A stretch of DNA of 38,893 bases from Nanobdellati archaeon (GCA_013152815.1 JAADFO010000026.1:1-38893), one strand, 5' to 3'. Counted from the first letter of the stretch, positions 1 to 38,176 are shown. The notes: generated from the letters alone by a model not told the origin. Program-made: numbers and translations.

Positions 1-1244
1 CCGGTAATGTCCTCGACGTTGCTGGTCGGCTTGTTTTTTGTAGCTTCTGCAATGAGCCGATCGACATATTCCCTGGCCTCCTTTGCCTGTGTCGCGAAGC
101 GTCTGATCTGCTGGGACTTCCGGATCAGCTCTGCCCTCGTCTGGAGATAGCCTGCATCGATATATCCTTGATAATAGTCCTCGATAAGCGCCGGCGTGAT
201 GTAACGGCCGACGCTCCTGAAGGAAGGATCCTGTTCTCCGGTGAGCTTGACTGCCTGAAGGACCAGCTGCTGACCGCTCACCATGGCCGCATAGGCAAGC
301 TCTTCGCCGGCAGCGTATCTGCTGAACATCTGCAGGTCATCCTCGAAACGCCCGATGGCCCAGGCGATGGATTTCTCTGGTTCGAAACGGTCATCGTTAT
401 GCGGCGTGCACTTTGCCTGGGTGCGGCATTGTTCTCCCTGACAGTCGCAGGGGACGATGTTCTCGATGAAAGAGGGATGTGCAGTGATAAGGCTGTAGCA
501 GATGGGGATGATGCCTGCACAGCCAAGATCCTCATCGATATGGAGGGGATCGCCCCTGCTGCTTGCCGCGATAAGAGCCAGGATCTCTGAGCTGTTGGCA
601 AGGCCCCGGCTTTGTTTCTTCAACTGTTCGTCAACCGTTTCTTTGTAAAGGAGACTGACCTTGCGTATCATGTTGCCCTGGTCCTGCGGGATAAGGTATT
701 CATTGAGCGGCTGGCCGGAAAGGCCCATGCGGATGTCCTGTGACGATACGCCCATCACCCTGTCCTGGTCTGCATAGAGATGGAATGTTTTGGCAGGTAT
801 GGTGTCGGGAAAGGCCTGATCAATGTCTGCTTGGAGTCGGGGTGCAAGGTAGGCTGCCAGTGCCTGTCCGGGCGGAGAGCGGAGGCAGCTTGTCTTTTCC
901 CTGTTCCAGAGGTTGAGTCCTGCATAGGTGCCGCAGGGAGAGACAGAGAGGAAACCTCCGTTCCTGCCGAGGGGAAGCGCTGCCTCGAAGACCGCGTATT
1001 TTGCCGTGGAAGCAAGGGTGAACTGGAGCTCTTCACCGGCCTGATAGGTCCTGAAGAGGTCGGTTGATTTCTTGCCGATAGAGACATCGAGCCCTTGTTT
1101 CTCGTCGGTATATTTGTCGTTGAACAGGAAGATGGCTGCGGTGAAGATGAAGAGGACACCTATGAAGATGAAGACGATGAAAAACCGCGCCCGCTTTCCC
1201 AGGGGCCTTCTCTGTTTGTGTTGGTGTTTCATGGCGTTTGCCAT
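1..1244 (-). CDS. Prepilin-like membrane-anchored protein with a degenerate (probably inactive) SLT lytic transglycosylase domain; 3' end runs off the window
   Basis: Not in the ORF track; translated by hand from ATG 1244, open to the window edge: MANAMKHQHKQRRPLGKRA/RFFIVFIFIGVLFIFTAAIFLF...ILALIAASSRG...CAGIIPIC...CDCQGEQCRTQAKCTPHNDDRFEPEKSI...AAMVSG...VLQAVKLTGEQDPSF. Colinear with the SLT domain of 3696..5231, with Ser (codon 563-561) at the catalytic Glu position. Confidence 0.85.
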   Translation of the reverse strand, partial: MANAMKHQHKQRRPLGKRARFFIVFIFIGVLFIFTAAIFLFNDKYTDEKQGLDVSIGKKSTDLFRTYQAGEELQFTLASTAKYAVFEAALPLGRNGGFLSVSPCGTYAGLNLWNREKTSCLRSPPGQALAAYLAPRLQADIDQAFPDTIPAKTFHLYADQDRVMGVSSQDIRMGLSGQPLNEYLIPQDQGNMIRKVSLLYKETVDEQLKKQSRGLANSSEILALIAASSRGDPLHIDEDLGCAGIIPICYSLITAHPSFIENIVPCDCQGEQCRTQAKCTPHNDDRFEPEKSIAWAIGRFEDDLQMFSRYAAGEELAYAAMVSGQQLVLQAVKLTGEQDPSFRSVGRYITPALIEDYYQGYIDAGYLQTRAELIRKSQQIRRFATQAKEAREYVDRLIAEATKNKPTSNVEDIT

Positions 1245-1260
1245 CTTGTTATCGTGGTAT

Positions 1261-1914
1261 TCATATCGGAAATGTGCCTGCGAAGAGCATCCAGGTGGTC
1301 AGTGTTATCTTTATGGGAGTGTGGTCAAGGCCAGGGAGATAGATGACAGCCACGGCCTTGTCGCCCTCTTGCGGAACATAGATGGACGGGCCGGTGGGAC
1401 TGCTGCCGACAGCATTGGATACAGACTCAGCATAGGTCTGGGCCTTGTCCCAGAAATAGGAATAGCCGAAGTTCGCATTGAGGGTGTCGCTGTATTCGAT
1501 ATCGAGGTTCCAGAACTGCCCATATCGCTGGAAGAACATCTCCTTGGCCTTCTCCCTGACGATGGCCAGGCGTTCGTCCTGATATTGGCCGAGGATGATG
1601 AGATCGGCCAGGGTGAGTGTCTTGTCGAAGACATCGGCACCTCCTGCGCCGGCAAAGGCCACGCCAGAACCCTGGTCTGCCGGTGTCCTGAGGAACGTGA
1701 GAAGCGCGGTGTCAGTATTGAGGGACAGAGCATCCTGGTTGATTTTCTGGTCTGGCCGGTCCTTGAAGACAGACAGCATGATGATGAAAAGAGCTGCTAC
1801 GAGGATGATGCCCAGCAAGGCAAAGGAATCAGGCAGGACCGTCGCCTGGGCACGCTTCCTGGTTCTCGTTCTTCCTCTTCGTTCGGGGATTTCTGTTCTC
1901 TTCATACGCATCAT
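1261..1914 (-). CDS. Class III signal peptide (pilin-like) hypothetical protein
   Basis: Basic leader ending RKRA/Q, then hydrophobic helix FALLGIILVAALFIIMLSVF; co-oriented within the cluster. Confidence 0.75.
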   Translation of the reverse strand: MMRMKRTEIPERRGRTRTRKRAQATVLPDSFALLGIILVAALFIIMLSVFKDRPDQKINQDALSLNTDTALLTFLRTPADQGSGVAFAGAGGADVFDKTLTLADLIILGQYQDERLAIVREKAKEMFFQRYGQFWNLDIEYSDTLNANFGYSYFWDKAQTYAESVSNAVGSSPTGPSIYVPQEGDKAVAVIYLPGLDHTPIKITLTTWMLFAGTFPI

Positions 1915-1955
1915 CGGACTTGTTCTGTTATGTTTCGTGTTTCTGATGCCTATGG

Positions 1956-2501
1956 CTAACTGCTGGGCATCAGCACATCAAATTTCAGGTATCCTGGTAT
2001 GAGACGCTGCCGGTAGCGGTCCCAGATGAGGATGTTGCGGGTTTCCCGCACCCTTGCGCTCGAACCCTTTCCAGAGAAGCCCGCGAGGACATCCCATCGG
2101 TCGTACCATCGCCTGTTCAGATAGATGGGCGGAACATAGTCCTTGCGTTCTGGGGATGCCCTGGAACCGGCAGCGTGGAGCGTTATCTTTGCGGCGATGA
2201 TCTTGTTCGGGTGCGTGAAATTGATGGCCTGGGCCAGCCGTCGGTCGGTGAAGTATAAGGGGTCGACGATGCCAGGGTGGCTCGAAAGCCCGTCATCATA
2301 GGTGAAACCGTGGGGGGAGAAGTATATCCGGTTGATCAGTGTGGCAGCCTTTGCCGGCTGGTCGTGCAGGGAGATGTTGGCGAACCACACGATGGCAGCA
2401 TTCGCCAGCACAAAGACGATGACCAGGACCATCAGGTTGATGATCCACCAGGTGAATTCGAAAGCAACTCCTCGCCTGCCCAACCGAAGACGGCTTGCCA
2501 T
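1956..2501 (-). CDS. Class III signal peptide (pilin-like) hypothetical protein
   Basis: MASRLRLGRRG/VAFEFTWWIINLMVLVIVFVLANAAIVWF; start overlaps the upstream stop (TGATG at 2501). Confidence 0.8.
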   Translation of the reverse strand: MASRLRLGRRGVAFEFTWWIINLMVLVIVFVLANAAIVWFANISLHDQPAKAATLINRIYFSPHGFTYDDGLSSHPGIVDPLYFTDRRLAQAINFTHPNKIIAAKITLHAAGSRASPERKDYVPPIYLNRRWYDRWDVLAGFSGKGSSARVRETRNILIWDRYRQRLIPGYLKFDVLMPSS

Positions 2502-3520
2502 CAGGGACCCACCTTCTTTGGGAAATAATCAAGGATTGCCGTGTCGATGGCATGGGCAAGGGGCCCGGGAGATGACGTGATGCTCAGTTGAGGATCCGCC
2601 CGGCTGTTGCCTATCTCGAGATAGACAGCGAGAGGGTTGCCTGCATAGAGTTCTGGTTGGTTCCCCGGCAGGACAGCGGTGCCTTGCAGCTGGGGGAAGG
2701 CGGCCTGTATCTCGTTGAGGATGCGACAGGCAAGATGTTTTGAAGGACGGAAGCGGCTGTCCCGCGGTTGCGGCACATAGGCGACCACGTCCTCAACAGC
2801 CGGATCTGCATTTGCACCCTGGTGGAGGGAGAGCATCACCAGGTTGCCCTGCATCTTCTGGTAACGCTCCTTATCTGTCGGCCGGGACTGCCTCGAACGG
2901 GTGGCAGAGGCAGGATACCCTGTTCCTGTACCGAGCAGCGCACGGGTGATGCTCCAGGTGAGCGCCCGTTCAGACGATGTCGCAAATCCCGGATCGATGA
3001 TCACCTTGATCTGCGCCAGCGGTGTTGATGAACGGCTGCCGCAATCCATCAGACGCAGAGAGACTTTAGGGTCATCCTTGTCGAACACGAGCAGGGTGTT
3101 CTCCTGCTTGGCCATGGCAAGGGAGGTGAGGACCCCCTTGTCGTGCAACGAGTAGGCAGTATCCTGGCCGTAGGGATAACGGAAGGGAAGGATGCTCTTG
3201 TCGTCCCTGATGGAAACGGTATCGTTGGAGAAGTTCAGCGTATATCGGTCGAGAGGCGGAGGGTAGTAGAGCTCAAGATTTCCAGGTGCAGCATAGACCG
3301 CAGAGGTAAGCAGACCGATGTCCCGCACATAGTATATCTTGTTGAAGTAGGTGGAGTCGCTGACACTTGCCATGTTGCCGTAGAGGACGACGACAACCAT
3401 CACCACGAGAACTGTCTGAAGAGCCATGATAAAGAGGTCTGTATCTCCGTCTGCGTCTTTCCGCTTCCATAGCGATGCAGCAGTTGCCCTATTTCCAGCA
3501 TGCCCCTCTTTTGACAGCAT
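2501..3520 (-). CDS. Membrane-anchored pilin-like protein with C-terminal Amidase_3 (N-acetylmuramoyl-L-alanine amidase)-like domain, first Zn ligand lost
   Basis: Start moved to ATG 3520, about 25 nt downstream of a TATA box; the ORF-track extension translates a U-rich terminator. WKRKDA is followed by a TM helix. The C-terminus has Amidase_3 motifs in order: KVIIDPGF (normally IDPGH), SERAL, ATR...ER, LSLHQ, SKHLA, AVYLEIGN, LAHAIDTAILDYF. Confidence 0.75.
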   Translation of the reverse strand: MLSKEGHAGNRATAASLWKRKDADGDTDLFIMALQTVLVVMVVVVLYGNMASVSDSTYFNKIYYVRDIGLLTSAVYAAPGNLELYYPPPLDRYTLNFSNDTVSIRDDKSILPFRYPYGQDTAYSLHDKGVLTSLAMAKQENTLLVFDKDDPKVSLRLMDCGSRSSTPLAQIKVIIDPGFATSSERALTWSITRALLGTGTGYPASATRSRQSRPTDKERYQKMQGNLVMLSLHQGANADPAVEDVVAYVPQPRDSRFRPSKHLACRILNEIQAAFPQLQGTAVLPGNQPELYAGNPLAVYLEIGNSRADPQLSITSSPGPLAHAIDTAILDYFPKKVGP

Positions 3521-3540
3521 GAAGAATTCACAGCAAAGAG

Positions 3541-3560
3541 CATTTAAATACTTTTGGTCG
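3541..3560 (-). promoter_or_regulatory. Putative archaeal BRE/TATA promoter for a leaderless transcript starting near ATG 3520
   Basis: Minus strand reads CGACCAAAAG-TATTTAAATG, about 25 nt upstream of ATG 3520. Confidence 0.55.
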
Positions 3561-3647
3561 GTGGCTGACGCTCCCAAGAACATGACGAGAGGGAGAGAGA
3601 AAGAGCAGAAAGGGATGAAAAAAAAGAGGGGTGAGAGAAACCGGGGC

Positions 3648-3676
3648 AGGAAAGAAAAAGAAAAAAAGAAAAGAAA
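3648..3676 (-). terminator. Putative oligo(U) archaeal terminator
   Basis: Long T/C tract on the minus strand just after the stop of 3696..5231. Confidence 0.5.
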
Positions 3677-3695
3677 CCGAACAGCAGCAGACATG

Positions 3696-5231
3696 TCAGG
3701 TGATGGTGGTGCCTATCTTCTGTTCAGCGAGTTCCTTGTATGCCAGGACCCTGGGGACGTACTGCGCAGTCTCGGCTGGAAGGTATGCTGAGACCTCGGC
3801 GAAAGAGGGGTTGGCCTTTCCGGTCTTTCGGATCGCCTTGATGACAGCGCCGGGTCCTGCGTTATAGGCTGCGATGACGAAGGAAAGATAATCAGGTGAT
3901 GTGTGATATGCAGCGAGATATTGGGTGGCGAGCTTGTTGAGGTAATTGATGCCCGAACGGATGGCCCGGTCGGGATTGAAGCGGTCGTCGTTGGCTGGCC
4001 CGCAGCGGGGACTGATGCATGTCCCTGCAACACGGCTCGCCGGCTTCAGGCAGGAACAGGCCGTAAGGAATGATTCCCTGAAGCCGCCGATGACCCCATT
4101 CTCCTGGGAGTTCTCCTTTGCGGTCGCGTAGGTGAACTGCATAAGCCCCGCAGCGTCTGCAGAGGATACTGCATCGGTTCTCCCCGCGCTCTCAGTGAGG
4201 ATGTGCCCCAGGATAAGAGAGGGGGTGATGCCTTCATAGGAGGGGGCCTGTGTGTGCATCGCATCAAGGATGGTGGGGAGATATGCTGAGATCGCCTGAT
4301 CCATGGTCTTGCTGCTGCCGCTTCCGAGGATGACATTTCCTGCCAAGGGGATGGAGGAGAGCGTGTCGATCTCTTTCTTTCGCGCACCGAGAAAATCCTT
4401 GCTCGCTTCATCCTGGATAGCACCGTAGAGATAGACAAGACCCTGCTGATCCGGATCTGCATAGCGCATGTCCATCTTATCGAGATAGAGTCGCTGGCTG
4501 TTCCAGGTCCCGCATTCATCGCCGTAGATGACAAAGTAACCGTAGGGCGCCTTGTCCAGGACGGCATTGCCGCTCTTTACATCGACCTGACGATGGATGC
4601 CGCAGAATCTTGGCTCCTCCTTCGATCGATAATGGGAGATGAAGATGACCTCGCTGGAAAAGGTCCTGCAGTCGAGGATGTTGGTGTCCTGTTCAGACAG
4701 GGAATTCTCCTTGATGTCACCCTGGTAGAGACAAAGACATGCCTGGTCGCCGCATCGTAACGGCCGGATGATGGGACCGTCGGTATCGCCTTCCTGGACC
4801 AATGCCTGCCCATGGACCTGCAGCGAATCCCAGCCTCTGTCAAAACCGACGATCGCATATCCTGGTGGAAGCGAAAGCGTGGTGGTGGTCTCTTCATATT
4901 GTCGGGTGCTGCCGAGAAGGGCATCGATGTTCCTGGCGAGCCCCTCGAAATTGTTGGTGGCTGCCTGCTGTTCGGAGGAGGATCCTGCGCTCATCGCCTG
5001 GAGCACGTGGGGGACGAGGAAGACGATGAGCACTGCGCCCAGAAGAAGATAGAACGTCTGGTTGAGGAGATAGTGTCCTTCTGCTTTCTTGTCTCCCCTG
5101 TCTCTCCTGCCAGAAAAGGAGAACCTTCTTGAGGGCCGAGAACGACTCCAGGAAACCCGTTGCCCTGTCCGCGGCTGCGTCTGAGGATCGCTCAACTGTT
5201 TTCTGGACTCCTGCCGCGTCAGTAGGTGCAT
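3696..5231 (-). CDS. Prepilin-like protein: conserved six-Cys carrier domain plus C-terminal SLT (GH23) lytic transglycosylase
   Basis: DKKA/EGHYLLNQTFYLLLGAVLIVFLV leader. SLT motifs intact: ILTES (catalytic Glu, codon 4193-4191), AGLMQF, AAYNAG, ETAQYVPRV. Start placed at ATG 5231 (GGAG upstream; overlaps the end of the previous gene). Confidence 0.9.
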   Translation of the reverse strand: MHLLTRQESRKQLSDPQTQPRTGQRVSWSRSRPSRRFSFSGRRDRGDKKAEGHYLLNQTFYLLLGAVLIVFLVPHVLQAMSAGSSSEQQAATNNFEGLARNIDALLGSTRQYEETTTTLSLPPGYAIVGFDRGWDSLQVHGQALVQEGDTDGPIIRPLRCGDQACLCLYQGDIKENSLSEQDTNILDCRTFSSEVIFISHYRSKEEPRFCGIHRQVDVKSGNAVLDKAPYGYFVIYGDECGTWNSQRLYLDKMDMRYADPDQQGLVYLYGAIQDEASKDFLGARKKEIDTLSSIPLAGNVILGSGSSKTMDQAISAYLPTILDAMHTQAPSYEGITPSLILGHILTESAGRTDAVSSADAAGLMQFTYATAKENSQENGVIGGFRESFLTACSCLKPASRVAGTCISPRCGPANDDRFNPDRAIRSGINYLNKLATQYLAAYHTSPDYLSFVIAAYNAGPGAVIKAIRKTGKANPSFAEVSAYLPAETAQYVPRVLAYKELAEQKIGTTIT

Positions 5232-6565
5232 GCATACTCCCCCTTGGCCCTTCGTTCCATCGCCAGGTTCCATTGGGGCGTGCCCATCTCAAAATGCCAT
5301 GGTTCCCCTGAAAACCTGACAAACCCCGCCTGGCACATCACCGATTCCACCCGGGCGGGATCCATGTTGTTGAGGTTCCTTCCTGCGCCGTCATATATGA
5401 CAATGTCGATGGCCCCGCCGCTCATGTGGGGGCAGGGCTGTTGATTGTCGACAGAACCAGGATAGCAAGCAAGGCTGCAATGATACGGCCGGCCATTATG
5501 GTGTTTGGTCTTATAACATTGGTAGAGATCGTTCTGGATGTTCCAGTCCCTGTACGCCTGGGTGATGACCATGCGGTAGTTGTGATGGGAGCTTGTGGGA
5601 TCTTGGAAGTCGGTGGAAAGTTTCTCGAGCGCGTCGCGGACCGGAGGGATGGCCTTGCATATCTTGCCGAAATCGGTATTGGTCTCGTCACAGGTGATGC
5701 CGGGAATGCCCTGGATGCTCACGAGCTGGCTCGTATCGATGGTATAGTGGGTCTGTGGCAGATAGGTTACCAGCGTAGCGATGCGGTCCCTGACGGAATC
5801 ATCCTCTATGGCGCCGTAGATGAATATCCTGGAATCGGTGCTCTCTGGATCGGGATTCTGATCACGGAGCCGCTCAAGATAGAGCTTTTGGGCATCCCAT
5901 TGACCGCATTTATCCCCATAGATGACAAAGTAGCCGTAGGGTCCTGTCTTGAGAGGTTCGTCGAGGCCGGAAAAGACCAGCTGCCTTCGTGTCCCACACA
6001 TGCGTGGCTTAGCATCCTGCTGATCATCAATCGGATCGACAGGCCGCTGATACCTGCTGATGAAGCTCACGTCGCCTGCAAAGGGTATGCACTGCACCAC
6101 ATGGACATCCCGCTGGGACAGATCGTTCTCTTTGATGTCGTCATCATAGAGGCAGATGCACGCTGCATCACCACAGGCGCTGGGTTTGAAAAAAGCTCCG
6201 CCGTTGCGATAACGGTCCGCCTGCGTATGGCTGCCAGAGATGCGTTTCCAGTTCTTGTCAAAGCCGACGATGGCATACCCCCCGCGGAGGCTCAGGGTCG
6301 TATCCCGATAGCCGTAGTCTGGTCCGTCGAGAAGCGCCTGTATGCTGTTGCCGAGACCGTTAAAATTGTCGATGGTTGCCTGGGTCTCTGCATCCTTGGA
6401 ACCCGGAGTCCCGAGAAAGCTCGTTATGATCGGCAGGATCATCAGGATGGCCAGACCCGCGAGCAGGAGTTGCAACACCTCAAACAGCGTTATCGCGCCC
6501 TTTTTTTCATTAGCTCGTCGTCGCACCAGTATCCCCCGTCCTGGCAGGTTCTCCGAGGATGTCAT
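5219..6565 (-). CDS. Prepilin-like protein: same carrier domain plus C-terminal M15-family Zn peptidase (VanX/VanY-like D-Ala-D-Ala or related cell-wall peptidase)
   Basis: EKKG/AITLFEVLQLLLAGLAILMILPII leader. M15 motifs AYR...Q..LY, PHMSGGAID (His and Asp ligands) and GF...EPWHF (catalytic Glu, His ligand) are intact. Exact start uncertain. Confidence 0.88.
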   Translation of the reverse strand: MTSSENLPGRGILVRRRANEKKGAITLFEVLQLLLAGLAILMILPIITSFLGTPGSKDAETQATIDNFNGLGNSIQALLDGPDYGYRDTTLSLRGGYAIVGFDKNWKRISGSHTQADRYRNGGAFFKPSACGDAACICLYDDDIKENDLSQRDVHVVQCIPFAGDVSFISRYQRPVDPIDDQQDAKPRMCGTRRQLVFSGLDEPLKTGPYGYFVIYGDKCGQWDAQKLYLERLRDQNPDPESTDSRIFIYGAIEDDSVRDRIATLVTYLPQTHYTIDTSQLVSIQGIPGITCDETNTDFGKICKAIPPVRDALEKLSTDFQDPTSSHHNYRMVITQAYRDWNIQNDLYQCYKTKHHNGRPYHCSLACYPGSVDNQQPCPHMSGGAIDIVIYDGAGRNLNNMDPARVESVMCQAGFVRFSGEPWHFEMGTPQWNLAMERRAKGEYACTY

Positions 6566-6788
6566 TTAGTGAATCCCTGCTGTGGTCAGATTGTTGGATG
6601 GTCGAATTGATCGTGGGAGCGAGTCCGCCCTGGATGATCTTCTCCCAGAAGAGCGAATAGGTGATGTAGAGCAGGATGCCCAGGACGACAAGGATGAGGA
6701 TCATGTCCCCCACCGTGCTGAAACCGAACATGGCCTTCTTCGGAAGACTCTTCCTTGTATGTTTTGATCGAAATCTCATGACATTCAA
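6510..6788 (-). CDS. Small class III signal peptide (pilin-like) protein
   Basis: PKKA/MFGFSTVGDMILILVVLGILLYITYSLF; GGAGG immediately upstream in the previous gene's end. Confidence 0.7.
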   Translation of the reverse strand: MNVMRFRSKHTRKSLPKKAMFGFSTVGDMILILVVLGILLYITYSLFWEKIIQGGLAPTINSTIQQSDHSRDSLNDILGEPARTGDTGATTS

Positions 6789-7063
6789 CCTCCTTTTTTA
6801 TCCGGAGCAGAGATGCAGCAGATATTTTCTCCTGTGCAGCCTATCTTTCCGAAACGTAATGGCCCGCACTCTGATGGTGCCTTACAGCTGGCGCCTTTGA
6901 ACTTGCTTGGGCAGTCATCGATGCTTGATGAGAAGAGCGATGACTTGTTGACGATGATGGCGATGGTCACGATAAGGACGATAAGGACGATGGCCGCGAT
7001 CACGATGGTGTTGAGGCTGATGCCCTGTGCCTGTTTTTGTTGTCTCAACAGCTGTTTTCTCAT
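6785..7063 (-). CDS. Short pilin with six-Cys head
   Basis: Start moved to ATG 7063 (TAATG overlap, GGGGTGAG SD). MRKQLLRQQKQAQG/ISLNTIVIAAIVLIVLIVTIAIIV, then C-x8-C-x5-C-x9-C-x5-CC; paralog of 10893..11135. Confidence 0.85.
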   Translation of the reverse strand: MRKQLLRQQKQAQGISLNTIVIAAIVLIVLIVTIAIIVNKSSLFSSSIDDCPSKFKGASCKAPSECGPLRFGKIGCTGENICCISAPDKKGG

Positions 7064-7707
7064 TAGCTCACCCCGGTGATGATGCAGGTGTCGCTTGGCC
7101 GCAGGGTATGATCTCCGGCGATGCGCTTGCTGCTGTCCATTTTGATAAGGAGATGATAGTTGTGTTTCAGGAACCCCCATCCTGGCTGATAGATCTTCAG
7201 GGAGATCTTGGAATGGTCATCGGGATCTGCGAACATCGGGCGGAAAAGCGCGGGATCTTCCTCCATCTTGTCACCGAAGACCTCTTGGGGGGTGCTCCAG
7301 TCAGATTCCTTTACGAGGAAGAGCGGGTTGCGATAGGATACCTTGATGTGCATCCAGGGAATCTTTCCGTCGAGAGGGTCATTGAGGTCCTCTGAGAAGG
7401 AAAGCAGGATGGTGTCCTCAGATATCTTGTCCTTGGTCGGCTGGTAGGCAAAATCCTTGACCGTGCAATCCCGCACCGGAAGCTCTGACGGTTCCCTGTG
7501 CAGAAGACAGACATTTTTAGGGAGGCAGGGTCCGCTTAGGTCATCCTGGACTGTATCTGCGAGCCCCACGAGATTAAGGCCCCCTTTCCAAAGGGGGACC
7601 ATATAGGTGGAGATGATGAAATACAGCACCCCCGCAACAATCAATAGGAGAATAAACTTGATGGCAACTCCATAACCCTTCAAGTCTCCTTCTCCTCTTT
7701 TGTTCAT
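7063..7707 (-). CDS. Class III signal peptide (pilin-like) hypothetical protein
   Basis: MNKRG/EGDLKGYGVAIKFILLLIVAGVLYFIISTY; stop coupled to the next start. Confidence 0.8.
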   Translation of the reverse strand: MNKRGEGDLKGYGVAIKFILLLIVAGVLYFIISTYMVPLWKGGLNLVGLADTVQDDLSGPCLPKNVCLLHREPSELPVRDCTVKDFAYQPTKDKISEDTILLSFSEDLNDPLDGKIPWMHIKVSYRNPLFLVKESDWSTPQEVFGDKMEEDPALFRPMFADPDDHSKISLKIYQPGWGFLKHNYHLLIKMDSSKRIAGDHTLRPSDTCIITGVS

Positions 7708-7755
7708 CTTTCATGACCCGCTTATCTTTCTGGCGTTTTCTATCGTTTTTGTCTC

Positions 7756-7920
7756 TTAGTTGCCGAATTGAAACACTCGGACGATGTGATCCATAAGGCT
7801 GACCAGGTCTTTCCTGGTGAGCACGAGGAGACCGATGATAGCAGCAAGAAACCCCAAAGCGACCATCCACTTCACAACAGTGGACTCGAGGAATGCTTTC
7901 CTTCCTTTTATGCGTTTCAT
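7756..7920 (-). CDS. 54-aa mini-pilin (not in ORF track)
   Basis: Hand translation MKRIKGRKA/FLESTVVKWMVALGFLAAIIGLLVLTRKDLVSLMDHIVRVFQFGN*; fills the gap in the cluster; TATA-like CTTTTTATT near 8012-8020. Confidence 0.75.
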   Translation of the reverse strand: MKRIKGRKAFLESTVVKWMVALGFLAAIIGLLVLTRKDLVSLMDHIVRVFQFGN

Positions 7921-8086
7921 GTCGGTTCACTTCGCATGGTCTGTTCAGGCAACATCCTGCCCGAGGACGGGACAGGGCCACTGAAGGCCAAATCATCTAT
8001 CCCGACGCAACAATAAAAAGCTATCGGTGGTTTTAAGCTTGGCCGGCCCCGCTTTTTCCTCGCGACACATATCAGGAATTGCCAAT

Positions 8087-9022
8087 TCAGGACACATCCT
8101 CTGCTGTGAAAGACTGCTTGACAGGGAACTCCCGGCATCCCAGCTCCTTCAGCTTTGCCTTGTCATACTCGATGATGGTGAAGAAGGTGAAATATTCCTT
8201 GTCAGGCCTGCTCCGATCTATGAAATGGTCATAGAGCTGATCAGCAGCAAAGGCCACGCCGCCTGCCACCAATAATGCCCAGCCGATGGGATTTGTCAGG
8301 CTGCCGATGATGAGGACGGCTGCACCTGTTCCGCCCACGACCGATGTTACCACAATGGTCCCCTTGTTGCGGGCTGCCCAGGCAATGGCCTCCTTCATGA
8401 ATTGGATGCCCACTGCATGGATCATGACAAAGGCATATTTTTTTGAGGTGTCAAGCCCTTTGCCTCCTGCAAGAGAAGGTTCCTGGACGAGGGCTTCGCC
8501 GAACTGCTCTGCTGCCTTGGGCGAGACATGACCTTCGCAATAGTCGAGATAGGAAAGGTCACTCTTGCCGACATGCCTGGTCGCCAGATACTCCTGCAAT
8601 CCGTTGATTCTCGTCTTTCCTGGCGGGTCGAAGGACACCACCGAATCGACGGCACAGTATATCCCATCATCCTTGAACAGGGGTTCCTTCCCTCGCAGAT
8701 AATGGTCACAGAGAGGATAATAATAGTCCTCAGCGAGGATCTTCTTGACCTGCTCTGGATCGGTTTGGGTGATGGTGTCGTAGCGGGTGGGGCAGTTGAT
8801 GTTCTCGAAGAGATCGTTGCCAGAGAACTGGCCGAGGAGATGCAGTTCCACGCTCTTTTTGCAACCCAGGGAAGAGGTGATGGAATCTGCCTGCTGGCCG
8901 ACCCTGTTGACGATGGTGACGAGCAGGATGAGAAGCGTGAACAGCCCTATGATGAACCAGACCGTGATCGTCTGCATGGCTTTTCTGCCCATCCTTGGTG
9001 CTGTTGGTATCGTCGATGTCAT
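8087..9022 (-). CDS. Pilin-like Cys-containing protein with C-terminal Gly/Ala-rich hydrophobic hairpin
   Basis: GRKA/MQTITVWFIIGLFTLLILLVTIV; body resembles 9054..9962; C-terminal segment TIVVTSVVGGTGAAVLIIGSLTNPIGWALLVAGGVAFAA. Confidence 0.8.
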   Translation of the reverse strand: MTSTIPTAPRMGRKAMQTITVWFIIGLFTLLILLVTIVNRVGQQADSITSSLGCKKSVELHLLGQFSGNDLFENINCPTRYDTITQTDPEQVKKILAEDYYYPLCDHYLRGKEPLFKDDGIYCAVDSVVSFDPPGKTRINGLQEYLATRHVGKSDLSYLDYCEGHVSPKAAEQFGEALVQEPSLAGGKGLDTSKKYAFVMIHAVGIQFMKEAIAWAARNKGTIVVTSVVGGTGAAVLIIGSLTNPIGWALLVAGGVAFAADQLYDHFIDRSRPDKEYFTFFTIIEYDKAKLKELGCREFPVKQSFTAEDVS

Positions 9023-9053
9023 GGTGTCTTTGGTCCTGCAGCCAGAAGCTTGT

Positions 9054-9962
9054 TCATCGATCTTTCATAGGTGATGGCGCGTTGACGAAGAGGGAGCAGA
9101 AGGGCATCATCATCTTGTCGCCACCCACGATGATCTCCACCGGCTTGGTCGGGGAGAACTCGGGAGGCACGAGGTAAATCCCGCCGATGGCGTGACATTC
9201 TTCGCAATCAGTGAAGGGATAGGTGAGAGGAAACGAGGAAGCCAGGGAACCCCAGAAATCCTCCCAAGGCCATGGCCCGGCATCTGTGATGGAGAAATAT
9301 CTGCTGAGTTTTGTCTGAAGTTTCACCATCTGCAGGATGATCTGCGAGCCATCCTTTACCTCCTGCTCTGTTCCCTTACGGGCATTGCTGAAGTCTGCCT
9401 TTTTCGGATCCTGCTTGTAGAGGTACTGCCAGTAGCTGTGGTCCTTATCGAACGGGCCGTTATGGCCTGTGAGATAGCGTTCCAGGCCAGCTATCTCGGG
9501 TTTCTCCATGGAACGCAGGTAGGGAAGCAGTGATTTATCGAACCAGATAGTGTCGCAATAGAAGCAGATGGGCCTGTCCTTAAGGTTCCAGTCAGAGAAC
9601 GGATCATACTTTCCTGCGCCCACCGTATCCCAGCACTGCGCCATGGCATCGGCGACGAGCTTGTTGGCCTTGTCTGTATCGATTGCCGTGCGCTCTTTGT
9701 TGAGAACATTGTTGGTTCCCTTGGTATCGAGGATAACCTCTCCCGGCTTGCAGTCGACCGAATAGAACGTATTCGACCCCAGCGGATTGACGGATTTCCC
9801 GAGATAGGTCAAAAAGATGCCTCGTTTGCATGCTGCCTTATCGCTTGCCCGGGAGATGGTGTTCAGGCTCTTCCCGAGGATCGGCACATAGATGGCGAAA
9901 CTCAGCAGGAGTATGACCAAGAGGACAGTGAACGTCGATAGGGCCTTCTTCCCCCGGATCAT
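9054..9962 (-). CDS. Pilin-like Cys-containing protein, paralog of 8087..9022
   Basis: Start moved to ATG 9962 (ATGA overlap with the upstream mini-pilin): MIRGKKA/LSTFTVLLVILLLSFAIYV; ADAMAQCW...G.GK..PF...CFYCDTIWFD...GLERYL. Confidence 0.8.
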   Translation of the reverse strand: MIRGKKALSTFTVLLVILLLSFAIYVPILGKSLNTISRASDKAACKRGIFLTYLGKSVNPLGSNTFYSVDCKPGEVILDTKGTNNVLNKERTAIDTDKANKLVADAMAQCWDTVGAGKYDPFSDWNLKDRPICFYCDTIWFDKSLLPYLRSMEKPEIAGLERYLTGHNGPFDKDHSYWQYLYKQDPKKADFSNARKGTEQEVKDGSQIILQMVKLQTKLSRYFSITDAGPWPWEDFWGSLASSFPLTYPFTDCEECHAIGGIYLVPPEFSPTKPVEIIVGGDKMMMPFCSLFVNAPSPMKDR

Positions 9963-10081
9963 GGTGCCGACCCCAGAAATATCTTTTTGACGATGATATA
10001 GACGAAGACAAAGAAGGTTATGATAAGGACAAGATAGATGATGGTCTCCAGACCCGGCACTTGCCCTTTTTTTCTGGTCAT
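9959..10081 (-). CDS. 40-aa mini-pilin (not in ORF track)
   Basis: Hand translation MTRKKG/QVPGLETIIYLVLIITFFVFVYIIVKKIFLGSAP*; GGAGG SD; ATTTAAAT box at about 10128-10135; stop overlaps the next ATG. Confidence 0.8.
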   Translation of the reverse strand: MTRKKGQVPGLETIIYLVLIITFFVFVYIIVKKIFLGSAP

Positions 10082-10241
10082 GGTTGCTCAGCCTCCAAGA
10101 AGCACAACCCATCTGAGGAGTATCCTAATTTAAATGCTGCGATTTATGGGGCGGATCTTACAGGAAAACAGGCAAGGAGGGGGATGAAGATGAGCAGCAG
10201 CGCCAGGAAAAGGATGATGATACTGGAAAAGCGGGCATTGG

Positions 10242-10485
10242 TCAACTCTTGATGCCGAGAGAGATGCAGCATTTCTGGTCAGAGAGCTGACAGTCGGTGT
10301 TGGGAACGATGGGACCCTGGCATGAACCGGTCACACAGCTCCCCCCTTTGGTCGTGCAGGAAACAACATCCTCAGAGAAGATATTGATCTTTCCTGAAAA
10401 GATGGCGACAAGCACCACGAGCACGATAAGAGCGATGGCAGCAACGATGATGGTCGTGATGGATGGAAATGTCGGCTTTTTTCAT
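10242..10485 (-). pseudogene. Short six-Cys pilin, frameshifted (or mis-assembled) just after the signal peptide
   Basis: ATG 10485 gives MKKA/DISI, then TCCATCCATCACG carries a 4-nt duplication. Removing it restores MKKADISITTIIVAAIALIVLVVLVAIFSGKINIFSEDVVSCTTKGGSCVTGSCQGPIVPNTDCQLSDQKCCISLGIKS. Confidence 0.75.
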
Positions 10486-10786
10486 GGGGGCATCATCATA
10501 GGAGCATCGGTTAGCACCACAGAGCATCATGACCTGCAACAGTCCTCGAAGGAGGAACAATCTATCCAACCGCCTGAGGGGGGAAGGATTGTGGGGCCGC
10601 AGGAACTGTCTCCGTTGCTTTGCTTAGCCTTGCATATCCCGCCCTGAGCACCACAGACATTGTCCTGTGTGCCTTCGGTGGTTGAGCTGTATCCTTCAGA
10701 GAAGATATTGATCTTTCCTGAAAAGATGGCGACAAGCACCACGAGCACGATAAGAGCGATGGCAGCAACGATGATGGTCGTGATGG
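10372..10786. repeat. Perfect 91-bp direct repeat (10372..10462 and 10696..10786) encoding the shared pilin N-terminal helix
   Basis: Base-by-base comparison: tcagagaagatattg...atggtcgtgatgg is identical in both copies. Confidence 0.95.
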
Positions 10787-10799
10787 CAGCTCGTTTCAT
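10527..10799 (-). CDS. Short pilin with six-Cys head
   Basis: MKRA/AITTIIVAAIALIVLVVLVAIFSG, then C-x6-C-x10-C-x13-C-x5-CC. Confidence 0.85.
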   Translation of the reverse strand: MKRAAITTIIVAAIALIVLVVLVAIFSGKINIFSEGYSSTTEGTQDNVCGAQGGICKAKQSNGDSSCGPTILPPSGGWIDCSSFEDCCRS

Positions 10800-10892
10800 G
10801 GTGGCATCAGGATTCAGGCACGTCTCGATTCAAATGGACATCATATCGCCGAGGACAACAGATGAAAAGAAAAAAGGAAAAGAGGTGCGATG

Positions 10893-11135
10893 CTATGCCT
10901 TGACACAGCAGACCTGATTGGAATCTGCAGGGCAGGACCAGGCATCATACTGTATCGAATAGGTGCTGTCGCAGGCATCCAGGCATTGGCCTCCTTTGTT
11001 CTGACAATCTGCTGTCTGCTCGGAGAAACTGCCTATCCTTCCCAGGAAGATCACTGAAAGGACCACCAGGACAAGGAGGGCTATGGCTGCAATGATAATG
11101 ACGTTCATAGAAATTCCCTGGGCTTTCTTAAGCAT
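10893..11135 (-). CDS. Short pilin with six-Cys head; candidate major pilin
   Basis: MLKKAQG/ISMNVIIIAAIALLVLVVLSVIF; C-x6-C-x3-C-x12-C-x7-CC; strong SD GAGGTGAT (11148-11141), own TATA box, U-rich tract after the stop (10862-10885). Confidence 0.88.
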   Translation of the reverse strand: MLKKAQGISMNVIIIAAIALLVLVVLSVIFLGRIGSFSEQTADCQNKGGQCLDACDSTYSIQYDAWSCPADSNQVCCVKA

Positions 11136-28995: not shown

Positions 28996-31900
28996 CTAGC
29001 CGAAAAGGTCATGGAAGAACATCAGCAGGTTCTTCCAGATGCGGGTGAAGAATGCCCCCATGGTCCCGATGATGCCTTCTTTCTTCAACGGGTATTCCAC
29101 ATTGATGTCTTTCTGGTTGATGAGGTATTTGCAGCCCTGGAGCGCCTCGTCGATAAGCTGGCCGGCGGTGCGGAACCGGTTCTCTCCCACTGCCTGTTTT
29201 GCTCGGGAGAGCAGTTCATTGAGCTCGAGGCATTCAGGATTGCTCGCGAAGAGATCCCGGGTGAGCGCTATCCGGGTGTTGAGCTGGCTCCTGTTCTCTT
29301 CTCCCAGCTCCAGGCTGCTCACCAGTATCTTGAGCCGGTCGGTGTATTTCGGTCGGGTGACCCGTCCTTCGATGGTGACCTCGTAGTTTCCGTAATCACG
29401 ATGGGACCCGATGGTCAGGTTGAGGTCCCTCCGTTGGCCTGGTTTCAGTTCGCCGATATTCTCTGGAAAGAATGAGAAGTTGAGGGTCTGGTTGCCGGCC
29501 ACAGCGATGAACGAGATATTATGGAATGTCTTGTTGTCGTGGTTCTCGATGTAGAGCGGTACCTGCATGGTCTGGTTCTCGAAGATGGTGATGACTCCTG
29601 GATTGAGGATCTCCAGCGAGAAATATTTTGTCCTGTTGGATGTCTGGTTGACGAGCTTGGTCTTGGTGATGGTGATGTAGGATGCCCCTCCCGAACTCCC
29701 CCCTCCTGTCGAGCTGGTGGATGAGGTGCTCTCGGGGATGTCTATGAACGTGAGACTGATGTTATTGCTGTAGACGGTCCTGTTCCATGGATCGGTCGCG
29801 CTGAACCGCACCTCTGCTGTCTTTGGACCGTCTGCATAGATGCGGGCGATGTTCGTGCCGGCCTCTATGGCGACCGATATGCTTGCAGGAGCCGAATAAT
29901 TGTAGGTGAGGTTGTCGTCTCCGTCAAGGTCTGAGAAATAATCGTCCAGGTCGACCCAGAGAGTGGTAGTCTTCTCGTTGGCCTCGAAATCATCGATGAT
30001 ATAGTGGATGTTGGCCTGGCTGATGTTCGGGCTCTGCGAGGAATCGTTGGTCGACAGCAAGACCTTGAACTGGAGATATTCCTGTTTTGCTGCGCGGACG
30101 AGGTATCTGCTGTCGTTGTTTTGGGCTCTTGGGGAGATGTTCCATGAAGAGAAGCTGCTCCCGTCTGCAGATGTCCGGACATAAAAGGTGATGTTGGTTC
30201 CGTTGGGCATCCGGCTGCTGACGTCGATCTCGGTGATGTTGAGGTATCCTGCGTCTTCCCTGAGATCGAACGTGGTCGTGTTATACGTGCCTGACATGGC
30301 GAAGCTTCCGTTGTAGAAGAGCCGGAGCCGTGACCCTGACTGTTCGGTGCTGTTGAAATCACCACCTGCCCAGCTGCTGACGTTGACGATGCCGAAACGA
30401 GGGGGCCTGTTGAGGTTGGTGATGTTGACGGTCCATGACGTGCTCGTGTTGTGGACCCCGTCGCTTACCAGGACCGACATGTTCTTTATCCCTGCGGAGG
30501 CGAAGTCGGGTGTATAATTGAACTGGTACTGGTTGCTGATGTTCGTCCCGTCGACGCTCCATATATAGGTCAACGGCTGGCTCTCCGGATCCTGGGCGGT
30601 CACGTTGAAGAGCTGGCTGCTGTTCTCCTGGAGGGTGACTGTCTGTCCGGCGGGGTAGCGGGCATTGATGGTCGGGGGGTTGTTGTTGAACACGATCCGG
30701 AACCGGATGATCTTGGTGATGGTGGTGGTGCCGTCGCTGAGGTTGAAGAGGATGGAGTGGTTGCCGATATCTGCGCTTTGCGGCGTGAAATTGACGAGGA
30801 CAGTGGAATAGTTCACCGGGGTCAGGTTGAAGAGGCTGCTGTTGGTTCCGAACGCCAGACTGTTGTTCTCCTCGTCGCTTCCGCTGATGTACCAGGTGAA
30901 ATTGCTGTTCTCGAAGGTCGTCTGGTTGGTGATGTTCGGATTGAAGTAGGGCGGGTCGTTCACCTCGATGACGGTGAGCATGAAGATGGCCTCATCGGTC
31001 CCGTTCCAACCGTCGCTGATGTTGATGCGCAGGGTATGGTTGCCAACGTTTGTATAGTCTGGGGTGAAGTTGATGATCGCCTGCTCATGCCCCCGAGGTT
31101 CGATGGTGAAGAAGGAGGCGTTCAGCGAGAAGCCGACCGAATCATTGTCCGTGTCGTTGGCCCGGAAGACATGGACATAGTTCTGGTCTTCCGTTGCGGT
31201 GAGGTTGGTGATGTTCAGGAGCAGGGGGCGGGAGTTGTTGAGGATGCTGAAGGTGAACACTTCGATGTCCGAGAGAAGGCCGTCGCTCACGTTGATGATG
31301 ATGCTGTGGTTGCCCAGGTCGGCCTGGCCTGGCGTGAAGTTGATCAGCGCGCTGGTCGAGGAGACAGCAGTCAGGTTGAACATCGTCGTGTTGGTGGTGA
31401 AACTCAGGACGTCGTCGTCAGCATCGCTGGCGGTGATGAGCAAGGTGAACAGGTTGTCTGCCCGCCACTCCTGGTCTCCGATGCTCGCCAGGACCGGGGG
31501 ATTGTTGATGTCTGCTATGGAGAAGATGATGTCGGTATAGTTCGTCGCCCCCCAGCTGTCGTTCGCGGTTATCCTGACCGTGTGGTTTCCCACCATGCTG
31601 TTGTCCGGGGTGAACGAGATCCGGCCGGCGGTGGCATTGAACGTGCTGATGTTGAACAGCGTGCTGTTGTCGGTGAAGGCCAGGGAATCATTGTCGCTGT
31701 CCTGGGCCGTCACATCCATGGTGAACGCCGAGTTCTCGGTGAGGTTCTGGGTGCTGTAGCTGGTGATCGTGGGGGCATGGTTCCTCCGGATGGTGAGGTT
31801 CATGATGCTCGACACGTTGAACTCTCCGTCTCCGACGGTTATGTTGATGGAATAGGTGCCGTTCTGGCCCTCTGCAGGGGTGAAGCTGATGAGGCCCGAT

Positions 31901-33162
31901 CCGGAAACGTCGAAAAGGGTCGTATTATCGTAGTAGAACAGGCTCTGCGTGTCATTGTCCGACGCGTTCACCTGATAGCTGAACAGGCCGTGTTCTGCCC
32001 CTGTGTGGTTGCCGATGGTCTGGATGATCGGAGGGTCATTGACATTGGTGACGTTGAGGATGACCGTGTTGCTGTCCGTCTGGTTCCTGCCGTCGCTCAT
32101 GGTGAAGATGATGGCTTCGGTGCCGTACCAGTTCTTGTCGGGCGCGAACGTGACCGAGAAGTCGGCTTCGTCGATGAAAACATGGACCGACGAGTTCCCT
32201 GTTACGGTGAAGCTGATGTTGTCCTTGTTGCTTCCGCTGCATTCGAGGTTGTCGGCATCATAGAAATGGTCGGTGAGATTGAAGATGTTTGTGAGGTTGG
32301 TGTCCTCTGCCCAGGTGTAGTTGTCGATGGAGGTGTTGAGCACCGGGACGCGGTTGGTGTTGTTCACGCTGATGTTCCAGGTCTTGCTGTCGGTCGCGTT
32401 GTACTCGTCGGAGACGATGAGCGTGACATTGTGGTTTCCTGCATCGCAGAATCCGGGGGTGTACTGCCAGGTGCTGTTCATGGTGATGAGCGTGCCGTCG
32501 AAGGTGTAGGTGTTGCTGAGGCTGTCCACCGGAGGGTTGTGGATAAGGTCATCGTCGCTCGCATTGTAGTCAAAGTTGAACCCCAGGCTGTTGTTCTCGC
32601 TGATGCTGGGGGTGGGGATGGCAGGCGACCATCCGGTGATGTTCGGCGGATCGTTCGTGTTGGTGATGTTGAAGGTGATGAACTGTGAGCTGCCTTCGAA
32701 GGGGGTTCCGGAATCCTGGACAACGATGTTGATGGTGACCACCTGCTGTGCGTCATCATTGCGGGGCGTGAAGTTGATCAGCGCATAGGTGTCGTTATAG
32801 TTCTCCATGTGGAACACCGGCAGCAAGGAAGCCGAGTTGTCCGAGAAATTCAGAGGATATTCTGCATCTGCATCATAGCCGTGCACCAGGTATTCGAAGC
32901 GGGCATCCTCTGCGATGGTGAAATTGGACGGCAGGTCTATGAATACAGGGTTGCTGGCCAGAGCGATGGGCGCCGAGACGAGCAGAACACCTAGAAAGAA
33001 CAATGCGAGAGCCAGATTCCCGCGCCCTTTGGGAAAATTTGCCGGTTCCATGCTTGTCTGTGACCTCTTCCTTTCTTTTCTACACGTCGGGGGTTTTAAT
33101 GCTTTTCTGTGGTTTCCCTGGCATCCCTGCTTCCGCTGTCGCCGGTTGAAGGTTCCTTTCAC
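28996..33162 (-). CDS. Large secreted/surface glycoprotein with tandem cadherin-like/Ig repeats
   Basis: Signal peptide LALALFFLGVLLVSAPIALA; repeated ~95-aa units (N.PP...E...A.D.D.D.L.F...I.FTP...GN....I.VSDG); very many N-x-S/T sequons; S/T/G linker. True start may be the later MEPANF. Confidence 0.88.
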   Translation of the reverse strand: MKGTFNRRQRKQGCQGNHRKALKPPTCRKERKRSQTSMEPANFPKGRGNLALALFFLGVLLVSAPIALASNPVFIDLPSNFTIAEDARFEYLVHGYDADAEYPLNFSDNSASLLPVFHMENYNDTYALINFTPRNDDAQQVVTINIVVQDSGTPFEGSSQFITFNITNTNDPPNITGWSPAIPTPSISENNSLGFNFDYNASDDDLIHNPPVDSLSNTYTFDGTLITMNSTWQYTPGFCDAGNHNVTLIVSDEYNATDSKTWNISVNNTNRVPVLNTSIDNYTWAEDTNLTNIFNLTDHFYDADNLECSGSNKDNISFTVTGNSSVHVFIDEADFSVTFAPDKNWYGTEAIIFTMSDGRNQTDSNTVILNVTNVNDPPIIQTIGNHTGAEHGLFSYQVNASDNDTQSLFYYDNTTLFDVSGSGLISFTPAEGQNGTYSINITVGDGEFNVSSIMNLTIRRNHAPTITSYSTQNLTENSAFTMDVTAQDSDNDSLAFTDNSTLFNISTFNATAGRISFTPDNSMVGNHTVRITANDSWGATNYTDIIFSIADINNPPVLASIGDQEWRADNLFTLLITASDADDDVLSFTTNTTMFNLTAVSSTSALINFTPGQADLGNHSIIINVSDGLLSDIEVFTFSILNNSRPLLLNITNLTATEDQNYVHVFRANDTDNDSVGFSLNASFFTIEPRGHEQAIINFTPDYTNVGNHTLRINISDGWNGTDEAIFMLTVIEVNDPPYFNPNITNQTTFENSNFTWYISGSDEENNSLAFGTNSSLFNLTPVNYSTVLVNFTPQSADIGNHSILFNLSDGTTTITKIIRFRIVFNNNPPTINARYPAGQTVTLQENSSQLFNVTAQDPESQPLTYIWSVDGTNISNQYQFNYTPDFASAGIKNMSVLVSDGVHNTSTSWTVNITNLNRPPRFGIVNVSSWAGGDFNSTEQSGSRLRLFYNGSFAMSGTYNTTTFDLREDAGYLNITEIDVSSRMPNGTNITFYVRTSADGSSFSSWNISPRAQNNDSRYLVRAAKQEYLQFKVLLSTNDSSQSPNISQANIHYIIDDFEANEKTTTLWVDLDDYFSDLDGDDNLTYNYSAPASISVAIEAGTNIARIYADGPKTAEVRFSATDPWNRTVYSNNISLTFIDIPESTSSTSSTGGGSSGGASYITITKTKLVNQTSNRTKYFSLEILNPGVITIFENQTMQVPLYIENHDNKTFHNISFIAVAGNQTLNFSFFPENIGELKPGQRRDLNLTIGSHRDYGNYEVTIEGRVTRPKYTDRLKILVSSLELGEENRSQLNTRIALTRDLFASNPECLELNELLSRAKQAVGENRFRTAGQLIDEALQGCKYLINQKDINVEYPLKKEGIIGTMGAFFTRIWKNLLMFFHDLFG

Positions 33163-36452: not shown

Positions 36453-36692
36453 GCAGGCTTTTTATAGCTTTTGTTGTTGCTTATCAACACTCCCTCTTCT
36501 TTTTTTTCTTTTTTTTTCTTTCGGGACGCTCGCCTGTTCTCTTCGCTTCCTTTCCTTCTGATGCATTCACCGTTCTCTGCAGGGCTTGTCTGTCCGTCTG
36601 TGCGACCCTGTATCTAAAACTATAAAAGACACCGGTCCCTGCTCCATCACCAGTGTTCAGTGCCCCTGTGTTTGTTATCTGGAGGGAATTCA

Positions 36693-37706: not shown

Positions 37707-38176
37707 TGCGATTCATGAACCATTTCCTGTTCTCTTTGCTCCTTTCACTCGCGGGTCTGATCCTGTTCCGGCCATCCTGGCCTCTCTTGTACCTTTTTTT
37801 GGGGCTTGTTTCCGGGCTCTTGCCTGATATTGACGAATCCCGTTCCTTTCTGGGCAGAAAGATAAGGCCGGTGGGCTGGTTGCTCAAGCATCGTGGCATC
37901 ACCCACAGCGCGCTTCCTGTGTTCTTTTTGGGATTCGGCATCTGGCTGGTCACCAAGGATTTTGTATTTGTCTATATGGTGGCTGTCCCCTATTCAGGTC
38001 ATCTCCTTCTGGACAGCTTTACCAAGGCAGGAATCAAACCCCTCTTGCCCTTTTCAAGACGCTCTGTCCACGGGCCCTTCAGGACAGGAGGTCTGTTCGA
38101 CAGGATGCTTCAGTTTTTTTGGCTTTTTATCATCGCGTTTCTTATGGTGTGGGCTATTCAGCTTTTTCTTCCATAA
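37706..38176 (+). CDS. YdjM-like membrane metal-dependent hydrolase
   Basis: N-terminal His, LLPDID, HRGITHS, HLLLDSFT..GI..L.P. Confidence 0.88.
   Translation: MRFMNHFLFSLLLSLAGLILFRPSWPLLYLFLGLVSGLLPDIDESRSFLGRKIRPVGWLLKHRGITHSALPVFFLGFGIWLVTKDFVFVYMVAVPYSGHLLLDSFTKAGIKPLLPFSRRSVHGPFRTGGLFDRMLQFFWLFIIAFLMVWAIQLFLP

Follow-up and report, generated by a model that had tools for sequence, protein, structure and literature searches.

Polymorphic toxin systems such as CdiA, Rhs and MafB are defined by a conserved N-terminus and an exchangeable enzymatic C-terminus. For modular type IV pilins, 264 architectures composed of "carrier" and "effector" modules have been described, one class being of predicted peptidase function (PMC8179133, main text). 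Among archaea, peptidoglycan hydrolases are prominent and diverse in Nanoarchaeota (PMC12352652, main text), and bacterial hosts of Woesearchaeota and Pacearchaeota have been suggested from large SLT genes only (PMC8204110 and PMC9723730, main texts). Here, a stretch of 38,893 nucleotides from a Nanobdellati archaeon (GCA_013152815.1, JAADFO010000026.1:1-38893; hereafter the window) was analyzed with respect to two adjacent genes, P0001 and P0002, which share an N-terminal domain, in the following called carrier, and continue into an SLT lytic transglycosylase and an M15 peptidase tip, respectively. A preliminary description of this DNA had regarded the pair as a polymorphic-toxin system in which an unnamed adaptor loads interchangeable enzymes onto a pilus. 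From the results presented below, it appears probable that the carriers are modular minor pilins which are assembled by unlinked machinery and show wall enzymes to bacteria on contact, with the domains being shuffled among several slots of one operon.

Both window copies of the carrier begin with a class III-like signal, i.e., a basic leader, Gly/Ala and a hydrophobic stretch, and the same start was found by motif test in 146 of 147 carriers, compared with 0/67, 0/29 and 6/38 in the controls RPA, RadA and YdjM, respectively. The AlphaFold2 model of the carrier (predicted local distance difference test score 78.5) comprises a helix of 58 residues (3-60) and a beta head, and type IV pilins and pseudopilins occupy eight of the top nine rows of a VIA structure search, albeit as a weak match (Z 2.9-3.2, root-mean-square deviation 4.2-6.1, 67-99 aligned). 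Because of its own class III signal and the pilin-like model, the carrier is not a separate adaptor but likely a minor type IV pilin itself; of the pilus adaptor proposed before, the link to a pilus-type operon holds. In agreement with the preliminary description, the domain is unnamed, as neither Pfam nor NCBIfam gave a family match; a word-indexed search for the carrier retrieved no proteins other than the two of the window, and the ESM Atlas returned only unnamed archaeal clusters under 0.9. A carrier profile built from 21 rows matches in 187/301 genomes of the order and in 154/251 genomes of a phylum sample, 29 of them from outside the order but within the class (the own genome and a small number of unpublished ones are counted in both tallies), and the family amounts to 2,230 clusters at 50% identity. 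No carrier match was obtained in the three genomes of the same family, which are 85-90% complete.

Chance similarity between P0001 and P0002 was rejected (BLASTP E 8e-54). In a MAFFT alignment, the shared part shows 42% identity over 258 columns, six aligned Cys and every motif quoted in the preliminary description, and identity falls off after YGAI.D, where the similarity had been said to end. The domain of about 190 amino acids (aa) delimited there (4407-4967 and 5798-6382) starts too late, however, since the shared unit of about 230 aa already begins at the KK..G / KK(AE)G motif with its hydrophobic helix. Likewise, the six Cys are aligned in both copies but only four of them are family-wide (222-229 of 231 rows), the Cys of PR.CG being present in 4/231 and that of GD.CG in 105/231 rows. 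A third carrier copy was not found in the genome. The database gene call for P0001 starts at ATG 5231, corresponding to 511 aa, and overlaps the 3' end of the upstream gene, and the in-frame ATG of P0002 (6565) also sits within its upstream gene. At 6501-6512 (-), the small pilin-like gene upstream stops within a TAATG in which its stop codon overlaps an ATG; seven A follow. Translation from this coupled ATG would not be in frame with KKG/AITL of copy 2, and the assembled frame requires the ATG at 6565, 55 bases within the upstream gene. The arrangement may reflect a long leader, slippage at this site or an assembly error in the A-run.

Both tips are intact, as had been stated. The SLT domain of P0001 (PF01464, E 6.8e-20) bears all GH23/SLT hallmarks, including the catalytic Glu (E361-S), and among solved structures it is most closely related to MltE/EmtA, MltC and Slt. 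When the region was used as query in a word-indexed search, distant bacterial proteins of the Slt/MltD type (about 30% identity) were obtained. Elsewhere, at G000:C42:4697-5788 (+), the genome encodes another SLT whose E-S motif looks intact and whose N-terminus is not of the prepilin type, and an M23-like frame is present on contig C67. The M15 domain of P0002 matches Pfam only under the curated cut-off (E 6e-5), and in a word-indexed search it matched only itself, but the His-x6-Asp...His zinc ligands, the Arg and the catalytic Glu are all present, the five residues being invariant across seven related M15 domains. A profile of these seven domains matches VanX (9e-10), followed by YodJ and VanXY, with 2vo9, an L-Ala-D-Glu peptidase whose type we take to be M15C, ranking fourth. 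In front of the third zinc ligand, P0002 has EPWH (E-x-W-H) as in VanX/VanY, while 2vo9 has DYPH, and the D-x-P-H motif of the lytic L-Ala-D-Glu endopeptidase of the 2vo9 type is not present in the P0002 domain. As E-x-W-H sides with VanX/VanY, trimming of D-Ala peptides is a more likely activity of the enzyme than wall lysis; the view that both tips are wall-lytic is hence not upheld.

For reconstructing the history of the pair, a FastTree phylogeny of 231 rows (42 of 273 rows were dropped due to poor coverage) and a 60-row IQ-TREE subset were calculated. The window carriers are sisters in both (0.96 in FastTree; SH-like approximate likelihood ratio test, SH-aLRT, 95) and group with P0047, bearing an SLT, and P0024, having no tail, in a four-row clade (0.98; SH-aLRT 97) which is matched by the Cys occurring in only 4/231 rows. 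The two copies are a lineage-specific duplication, and the tip swap is captured within this recent event. Sister carriers of family f19 also differ in their tips (M23 versus GH73+M15, support 84), and the NlpC/P60 tip is placed among M15A-like tips (support 93-96), with deep branches being poorly resolved. As proposed, different hydrolase tips are found across relatives and even between sister carriers. Altogether, the enzyme/non-enzyme state changes nine times on the 231-row tree, gain and loss not being separable.

The frequency of such tips was established by a census of the matches listed (150 of 201), from which, after removal of one unpublished genome, 151 non-redundant carrier-like frames at 143 loci were obtained, six of the frames being cut by a locus end. 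Excluding the own two, 149 relatives were classified: 69 with a tail of less than 50 aa, 33 with a Cys-rich tail, 39 with another tail, often TPR-like or unnamed, and eight with an enzyme. Six of these enzyme tips are of peptidoglycan type (SLT, M15, GH73, M23 and 3D) and two are SGNH esterases, matching generic GDSL esterases and no named peptidoglycan esterase. A further sample of 122 proteins, taken from the best 150 of the 2,230-cluster match list, comprises 70 without tail and seven with an enzyme, three of them M15A-like by motif (the 72 longer proteins were scanned with Pfam). The label M15A-like is weak for the TPR-bearing tips (Pfam E 0.0015, no PDB match), and the proteins examined here also served as seeds of the local tip profiles. 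Hence, tabulating the tips over homologues, as had been suggested, reveals them to be diverse, neither nearly always absent nor uniform, but armed carriers are the exception. Nuclease, deaminase, ADP-ribosyltransferase or other cytotoxic tips were not found in Pfam scans of the tails, many of which are unnamed. Since none of the eight other loci with two carrier-like matches has an enzyme tip, the armed tandem pair of the window is unique in the sample. At four loci (L067, L072, L076 and L129), the second or third gene upstream encodes a C-terminal carrier-like domain behind a different prepilin N-terminus, which suggests an older paralog in that slot.

The pair is part of a co-directional minus-strand cluster (bases 1-11135) in which 13 of 13 checked genes begin with a basic motif, Gly/Ala and a hydrophobic stretch, and each of the seven genes checked in its upstream part (6510-11135) has a class III-like motif at its start. 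The order carrier-D-C-B-A (slots defined in Table 1) is found in 82 of 120 fetched loci, with near variants in most others, and each of the D, C, B and A families is present in 99-112 of the 120; the carrier fills a fixed slot in a Woesearchaeota-type prepilin operon. Slot A of the window continues at G000:C56:1235-3115 (-) with an overlap of 91 bases, resulting in a total of about 1,000 aa. Among 81 slot A proteins of at least 300 aa, Pfam assigns tails mainly to SLT (26) and M23 (16), besides Amidase_2 (4), 3D (3), GH73, NlpC/P60 and VanY (2 each) as well as M15_4 and YkuD (1 each). One slot A protein (L134 tail, row 55 of alignment A3) combines a C-terminal domain resembling VgrG3 of the type VI secretion system (E 1.8e-32) with NlpC/P60. 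In slot D, tails are Amidase_3-like in 23/72 cases (Pfam, E<=0.05), with a profile match to CwlV at 4e-12; the slot is bimodal in relatives, with tail-less proteins of about 150 aa and others of about 330 aa having an Amidase_3-like, mostly degenerate tail. Moreover, among 132 longer D, B and small-pilin proteins scanned, M23, 3D, M15_4, C39_2, DUF2272 and NlpC domains occur as single cases. Both enzyme domains of the window can be aligned with domains found on slots A and E, and the SLT shares a Cys-rich insert with slot A SLTs. The SLT tree is poorly resolved and gives no donor slot for the domain. As neighboring slots bear the same enzyme families more often than the carrier, modularity belongs to the whole operon and is not special to the carrier as previously assumed: slots A, D, B and E as well as small pilins swap, too. 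With local profiles, in which Amidase_2 and some other families are not represented, 44 of the 87 loci with a complete slot A have a peptidoglycan-type domain besides the amidase-like one. In the window, slot A is without the catalytic Glu and slot D without the first zinc His, so that the only intact-looking catalytic sites of the operon are those of the two carriers.

Table 1. Features of the carrier pair and its operon (window coordinates) and enzyme tips of related carriers (locus or protein).
Feature	Position or locus	Strand	Remarks
Carrier copy 1 + SLT (P0001)	3696..5273	-	525 aa
Carrier copy 2 + M15 peptidase (P0002)	5219..6565	-	448 aa
Class III-like motif KKAEG of copy 1, then hydrophobic helix	5076..5090	-	sequence
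Class III-like motif EKKG/A of copy 2	6494..6508	-	sequence
Predicted pilin-like module, copy 1	4410..5075	-	58-residue helix, beta-strand head, four family-wide Cys
Pilin-like module, copy 2	5801..6493	-	sister of copy 1 in family tree
SLT/GH23 lytic transglycosylase domain	3750..4260	-	catalytic E361 (4182-4199 LTESAG), GLMQF, AYNAG
M15 zinc peptidase domain, VanX/VanY-like	5222..5746	-	R339, H380, D387, E421, H424
Slot D: prepilin-like, Amidase_3-like tail	2501..3694	-	first zinc His replaced (DPGF)
Slot C: conserved prepilin-like protein	1956..2501	-	
Slot B: conserved prepilin-like protein	1261..1914	-	
Slot A: large prepilin-like protein, SLT without catalytic Glu	1..1244	-	runs on into contig C56
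Upstream operon part: small pilin-like genes, two slot E genes (8087-9022, 9054-10112)	6510..11135	-	
GH73+M15 tip	L162, L163		
TPR+SLT tip	L164		
SLT-like+M23 tip	L058		
3D tip	L151		
TPR+M15A-like tip	L056		weak
SGNH tip	L071, L165		
SLT tip	P0047		further sample
M23 tip	P0057		further sample
NlpC/P60 tip	P0128		further sample
Amidase_5 tip	P0072		further sample; by Pfam only

The window corresponds to contig C26 of a 1.49-Mb genome with a completeness of 90.8%. This contig also encodes PCNA, Cdc6, PolD DP1/DP2 and a tRNA endonuclease and is thus archaeal; bacterial contamination was rejected on the same grounds. Because a same-order carrier (P0144 at locus L056, genome G081) and locus L192 bear the NCBI label Candidatus Woesearchaeota, the lineage is presumably Woesearchaeota. 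The genome, at 90.8% completeness, yielded neither a Mur ligase nor a penicillin-binding protein (PBP) transpeptidase, consistent with the cell without murein assumed before, and a role of the enzymes in pseudomurein or in an own wall was rejected as no Mur ligase was found. Two ATPase/platform loci and an A24 prepilin peptidase, the latter on C73, are encoded elsewhere in the genome. One of these ATPase/platform loci is adjoined by a short pilin-like gene (KRAQ-AAMEFLMTYGW; G000:C33:22443-22928, +), which we take to be Epd-like and which is a candidate for the major pilin. After the operon, RPA, YdjM and a RadA-like gene are often found (67, 38 and 28 loci, respectively, within L052-L171), representing a conserved link to recombination genes; the last is presumably RadA, being named from its sequence. 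In the window, RPA and YdjM are located at 36660-38176 instead. Besides, 28996-35894 (-) encodes two large adjacent proteins (1388 and 911 aa) which contain Big_9 and cadherin-like repeats and are probably adhesins.

As modular minor pilins, the carriers would be cut by the prepilin peptidase after the KK..G motif, and the pilin module would then pack into a filament, probably in a tip complex with the products of slots D, C, B and A. Recombination within the operon would move enzyme domains between pilin C-termini. On contact with a bacterium, the SLT would cut glycan strands and the M15 peptidase would trim D-Ala stem peptides, so that the wall of the bacterium, be it host or prey, would be locally opened or loosened. 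Only tentatively, this can be extended to the multi-subunit pilus tip of Woesearchaeota being a modular siege tool against bacteria, with at least five slots accepting wall-cutting domains, which are shuffled between slots and lineages to match the wall chemistry of each bacterial host, i.e., the attack organ of a parasite or predator of bacteria.

Several findings weigh against a display of active wall enzymes on pilins. On the side of the enzymes, the carrier slot is armed in 8/149 relatives only, the M15 domain is of the trimming type, and, in the window, catalytic residues are missing from the SLT of slot A and the amidase of slot D. Many other domains look dead as well, with all three motif patterns being kept in 5/72 slot D tails. 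Furthermore, 43 of the 87 loci with a complete slot A have, by the local profiles, no peptidoglycan-type domain beyond the amidase-like one, and wall attack is therefore not the universal job of the operon. In an alternative, but unlikely, explanation, the pilin-borne domains bind walls or trim free peptidoglycan debris, serving adhesion or scavenging, and live bacteria are not breached. In its favor, dead SLT and amidase-like domains are retained, carrier tails are mostly missing, Cys-rich, TPR-like or of unknown type, the M15 domain is nearest to a D,D-dipeptidase and carboxypeptidases, and known modular pilins are mostly adhesins (PMC8179133, main text). It does not account well for intact cutters (SLT with Glu, M23, NlpC/P60, GH73, 3D, Amidase_2) recurring across slots, nor for a genome that retains an intact carrier SLT though its slot A SLT is dead.

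On the side of the pilin assignment, the structural likeness is weak (best VIA Z 3.2): pilins head the VIA list in the fold comparison recommended in the preliminary description, but a Foldseek search against the PDB gave no carrier match at E<=0.001, and the carrier profile has only helix-level matches among PDB sequences, with the pilin PilE1 at E 0.85. In addition, the start of copy 2 is ambiguous, and no motor or platform gene was found beside the operon. The proteins could instead be surface enzymes which are anchored in the membrane by their prepilin-like N-terminus without ever being built into a filament, particularly as no ATPase or platform gene was recognized among the common neighbor families of the loci and archaeal substrate-binding proteins also bear class III signals (PMC13705601, main text). 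Such a use of the signal is rather improbable here, since the tail-less form is the commonest one (69/149) and the model is of the pilin-like helix-plus-sheet type, since the prepilin-like N-termini of all checked cluster genes and their fixed order are as expected for the subunits of one complex, and since a location of pilins apart from ATPase/platform genes is usual in Nanobdellati (PMC13705601, main text). Finally, a dedicated polymorphic-toxin carrier or adaptor loading interchangeable effectors onto the pilus is very improbable, even though the tandem genes combine a conserved N-terminus with different catalytic C-termini and tips are swapped between sister carriers, because enzyme tips are rare and tail-less forms frequent, the carrier domain is usually single-copy and often alone, other two-carrier loci are unarmed, other slots swap enzymes more often, no cytotoxic tip was detected, no immunity-like gene is present in the operon, in line with the earlier remark that none is evident, and local SLT and M15 profiles find no orphan tip cassette in the window, the other matches in the genome lying on unrelated contigs. 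In most loci, the slot D prepilin-like gene comes next after the carrier; in the window, copy 2 is followed by copy 1 and copy 1 by slot D.

Taking the carriers as modular minor pilins, the analysis ties wall enzymes to an ordered prepilin operon and thereby bears on the debated hosts of Woesearchaeota and Pacearchaeota; it defines one unnamed core operon family. The phenomenon is broader than described before, comprising an operon-wide modularity, while its value is tempered by the carrier slot being mostly unarmed. As small soluble domains, the tips are amenable to assays on sacculi, and tip content is predicted to track the wall type of the host. In the literature searched, with subscription papers lying outside its coverage, no published link between Woesearchaeota pilins and wall enzymes was found.

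Compared with known systems, polymorphic toxins (CdiA, Rhs, MafB) share the architecture of conserved N-terminus and exchangeable enzymatic C-terminus with a minority of the carriers, but the latter lack an immunity gene and orphan tips, are armed in the minority only, and their tips are confined to wall or ester chemistry. A screen for archaeal peptidoglycan hydrolases reportedly required a catalytic plus a cell-wall-binding domain. Bacteria-killing hydrolases of this kind are archaeal enzymes aimed at murein as proposed here, whereas the partner module is pilin-like in the carriers; "pilin" does not occur in the main text of the corresponding paper (PMC12352652), and order names are absent from 12 of its 13 readable supplements. 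The large murein transglycosylases of fam00969 / module 98 from Woesearchaeota and Pacearchaeota agree in lineage, enzyme type and the proposal of a bacterial host or prey (PMC8204110 and PMC9723730, whose main texts do not mention "pili"). Judged by size and SLT content, slot A is probably fam00969. The proteins of fam00969 / module 98 are described as large extracellular SLT proteins (same sources, main texts), whereas the carriers form a separate family of smaller size. Archaeal system 1 (Epd-type) filaments likewise comprise many pilins with class III signals, and in Nanobdellati the ATPase/platform genes lie apart as in the genome studied here (PMC13705601 and PMC4858521, main texts, in which neither "peptidoglycan" nor "Woese" occurs); in contrast to the scattered Nanobdellati pilins reported in 2026 (PMC13705601, main text), the cluster is ordered and conserved. 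Modular type IV pilins match the carrier better than polymorphic toxins do. PilB-vWA and PilC-lectin of Streptococcus sanguinis combine a class III signal and a small pilin module with a functional module grafted at the C-terminus, and the carrier, with its predicted pilin module, is built likewise (PMC8179133, in the main text of which "peptidoglycan", "amidase" and "archaea" do not occur). Different from these bacterial pilins, the carrier is archaeal, has no sequence family match, a larger head and four conserved Cys, and the grafts in its operon are peptidoglycan-type enzymes moving among several slots. The system is accordingly filed under modular type IV pilins, as a variant with wall enzymes.

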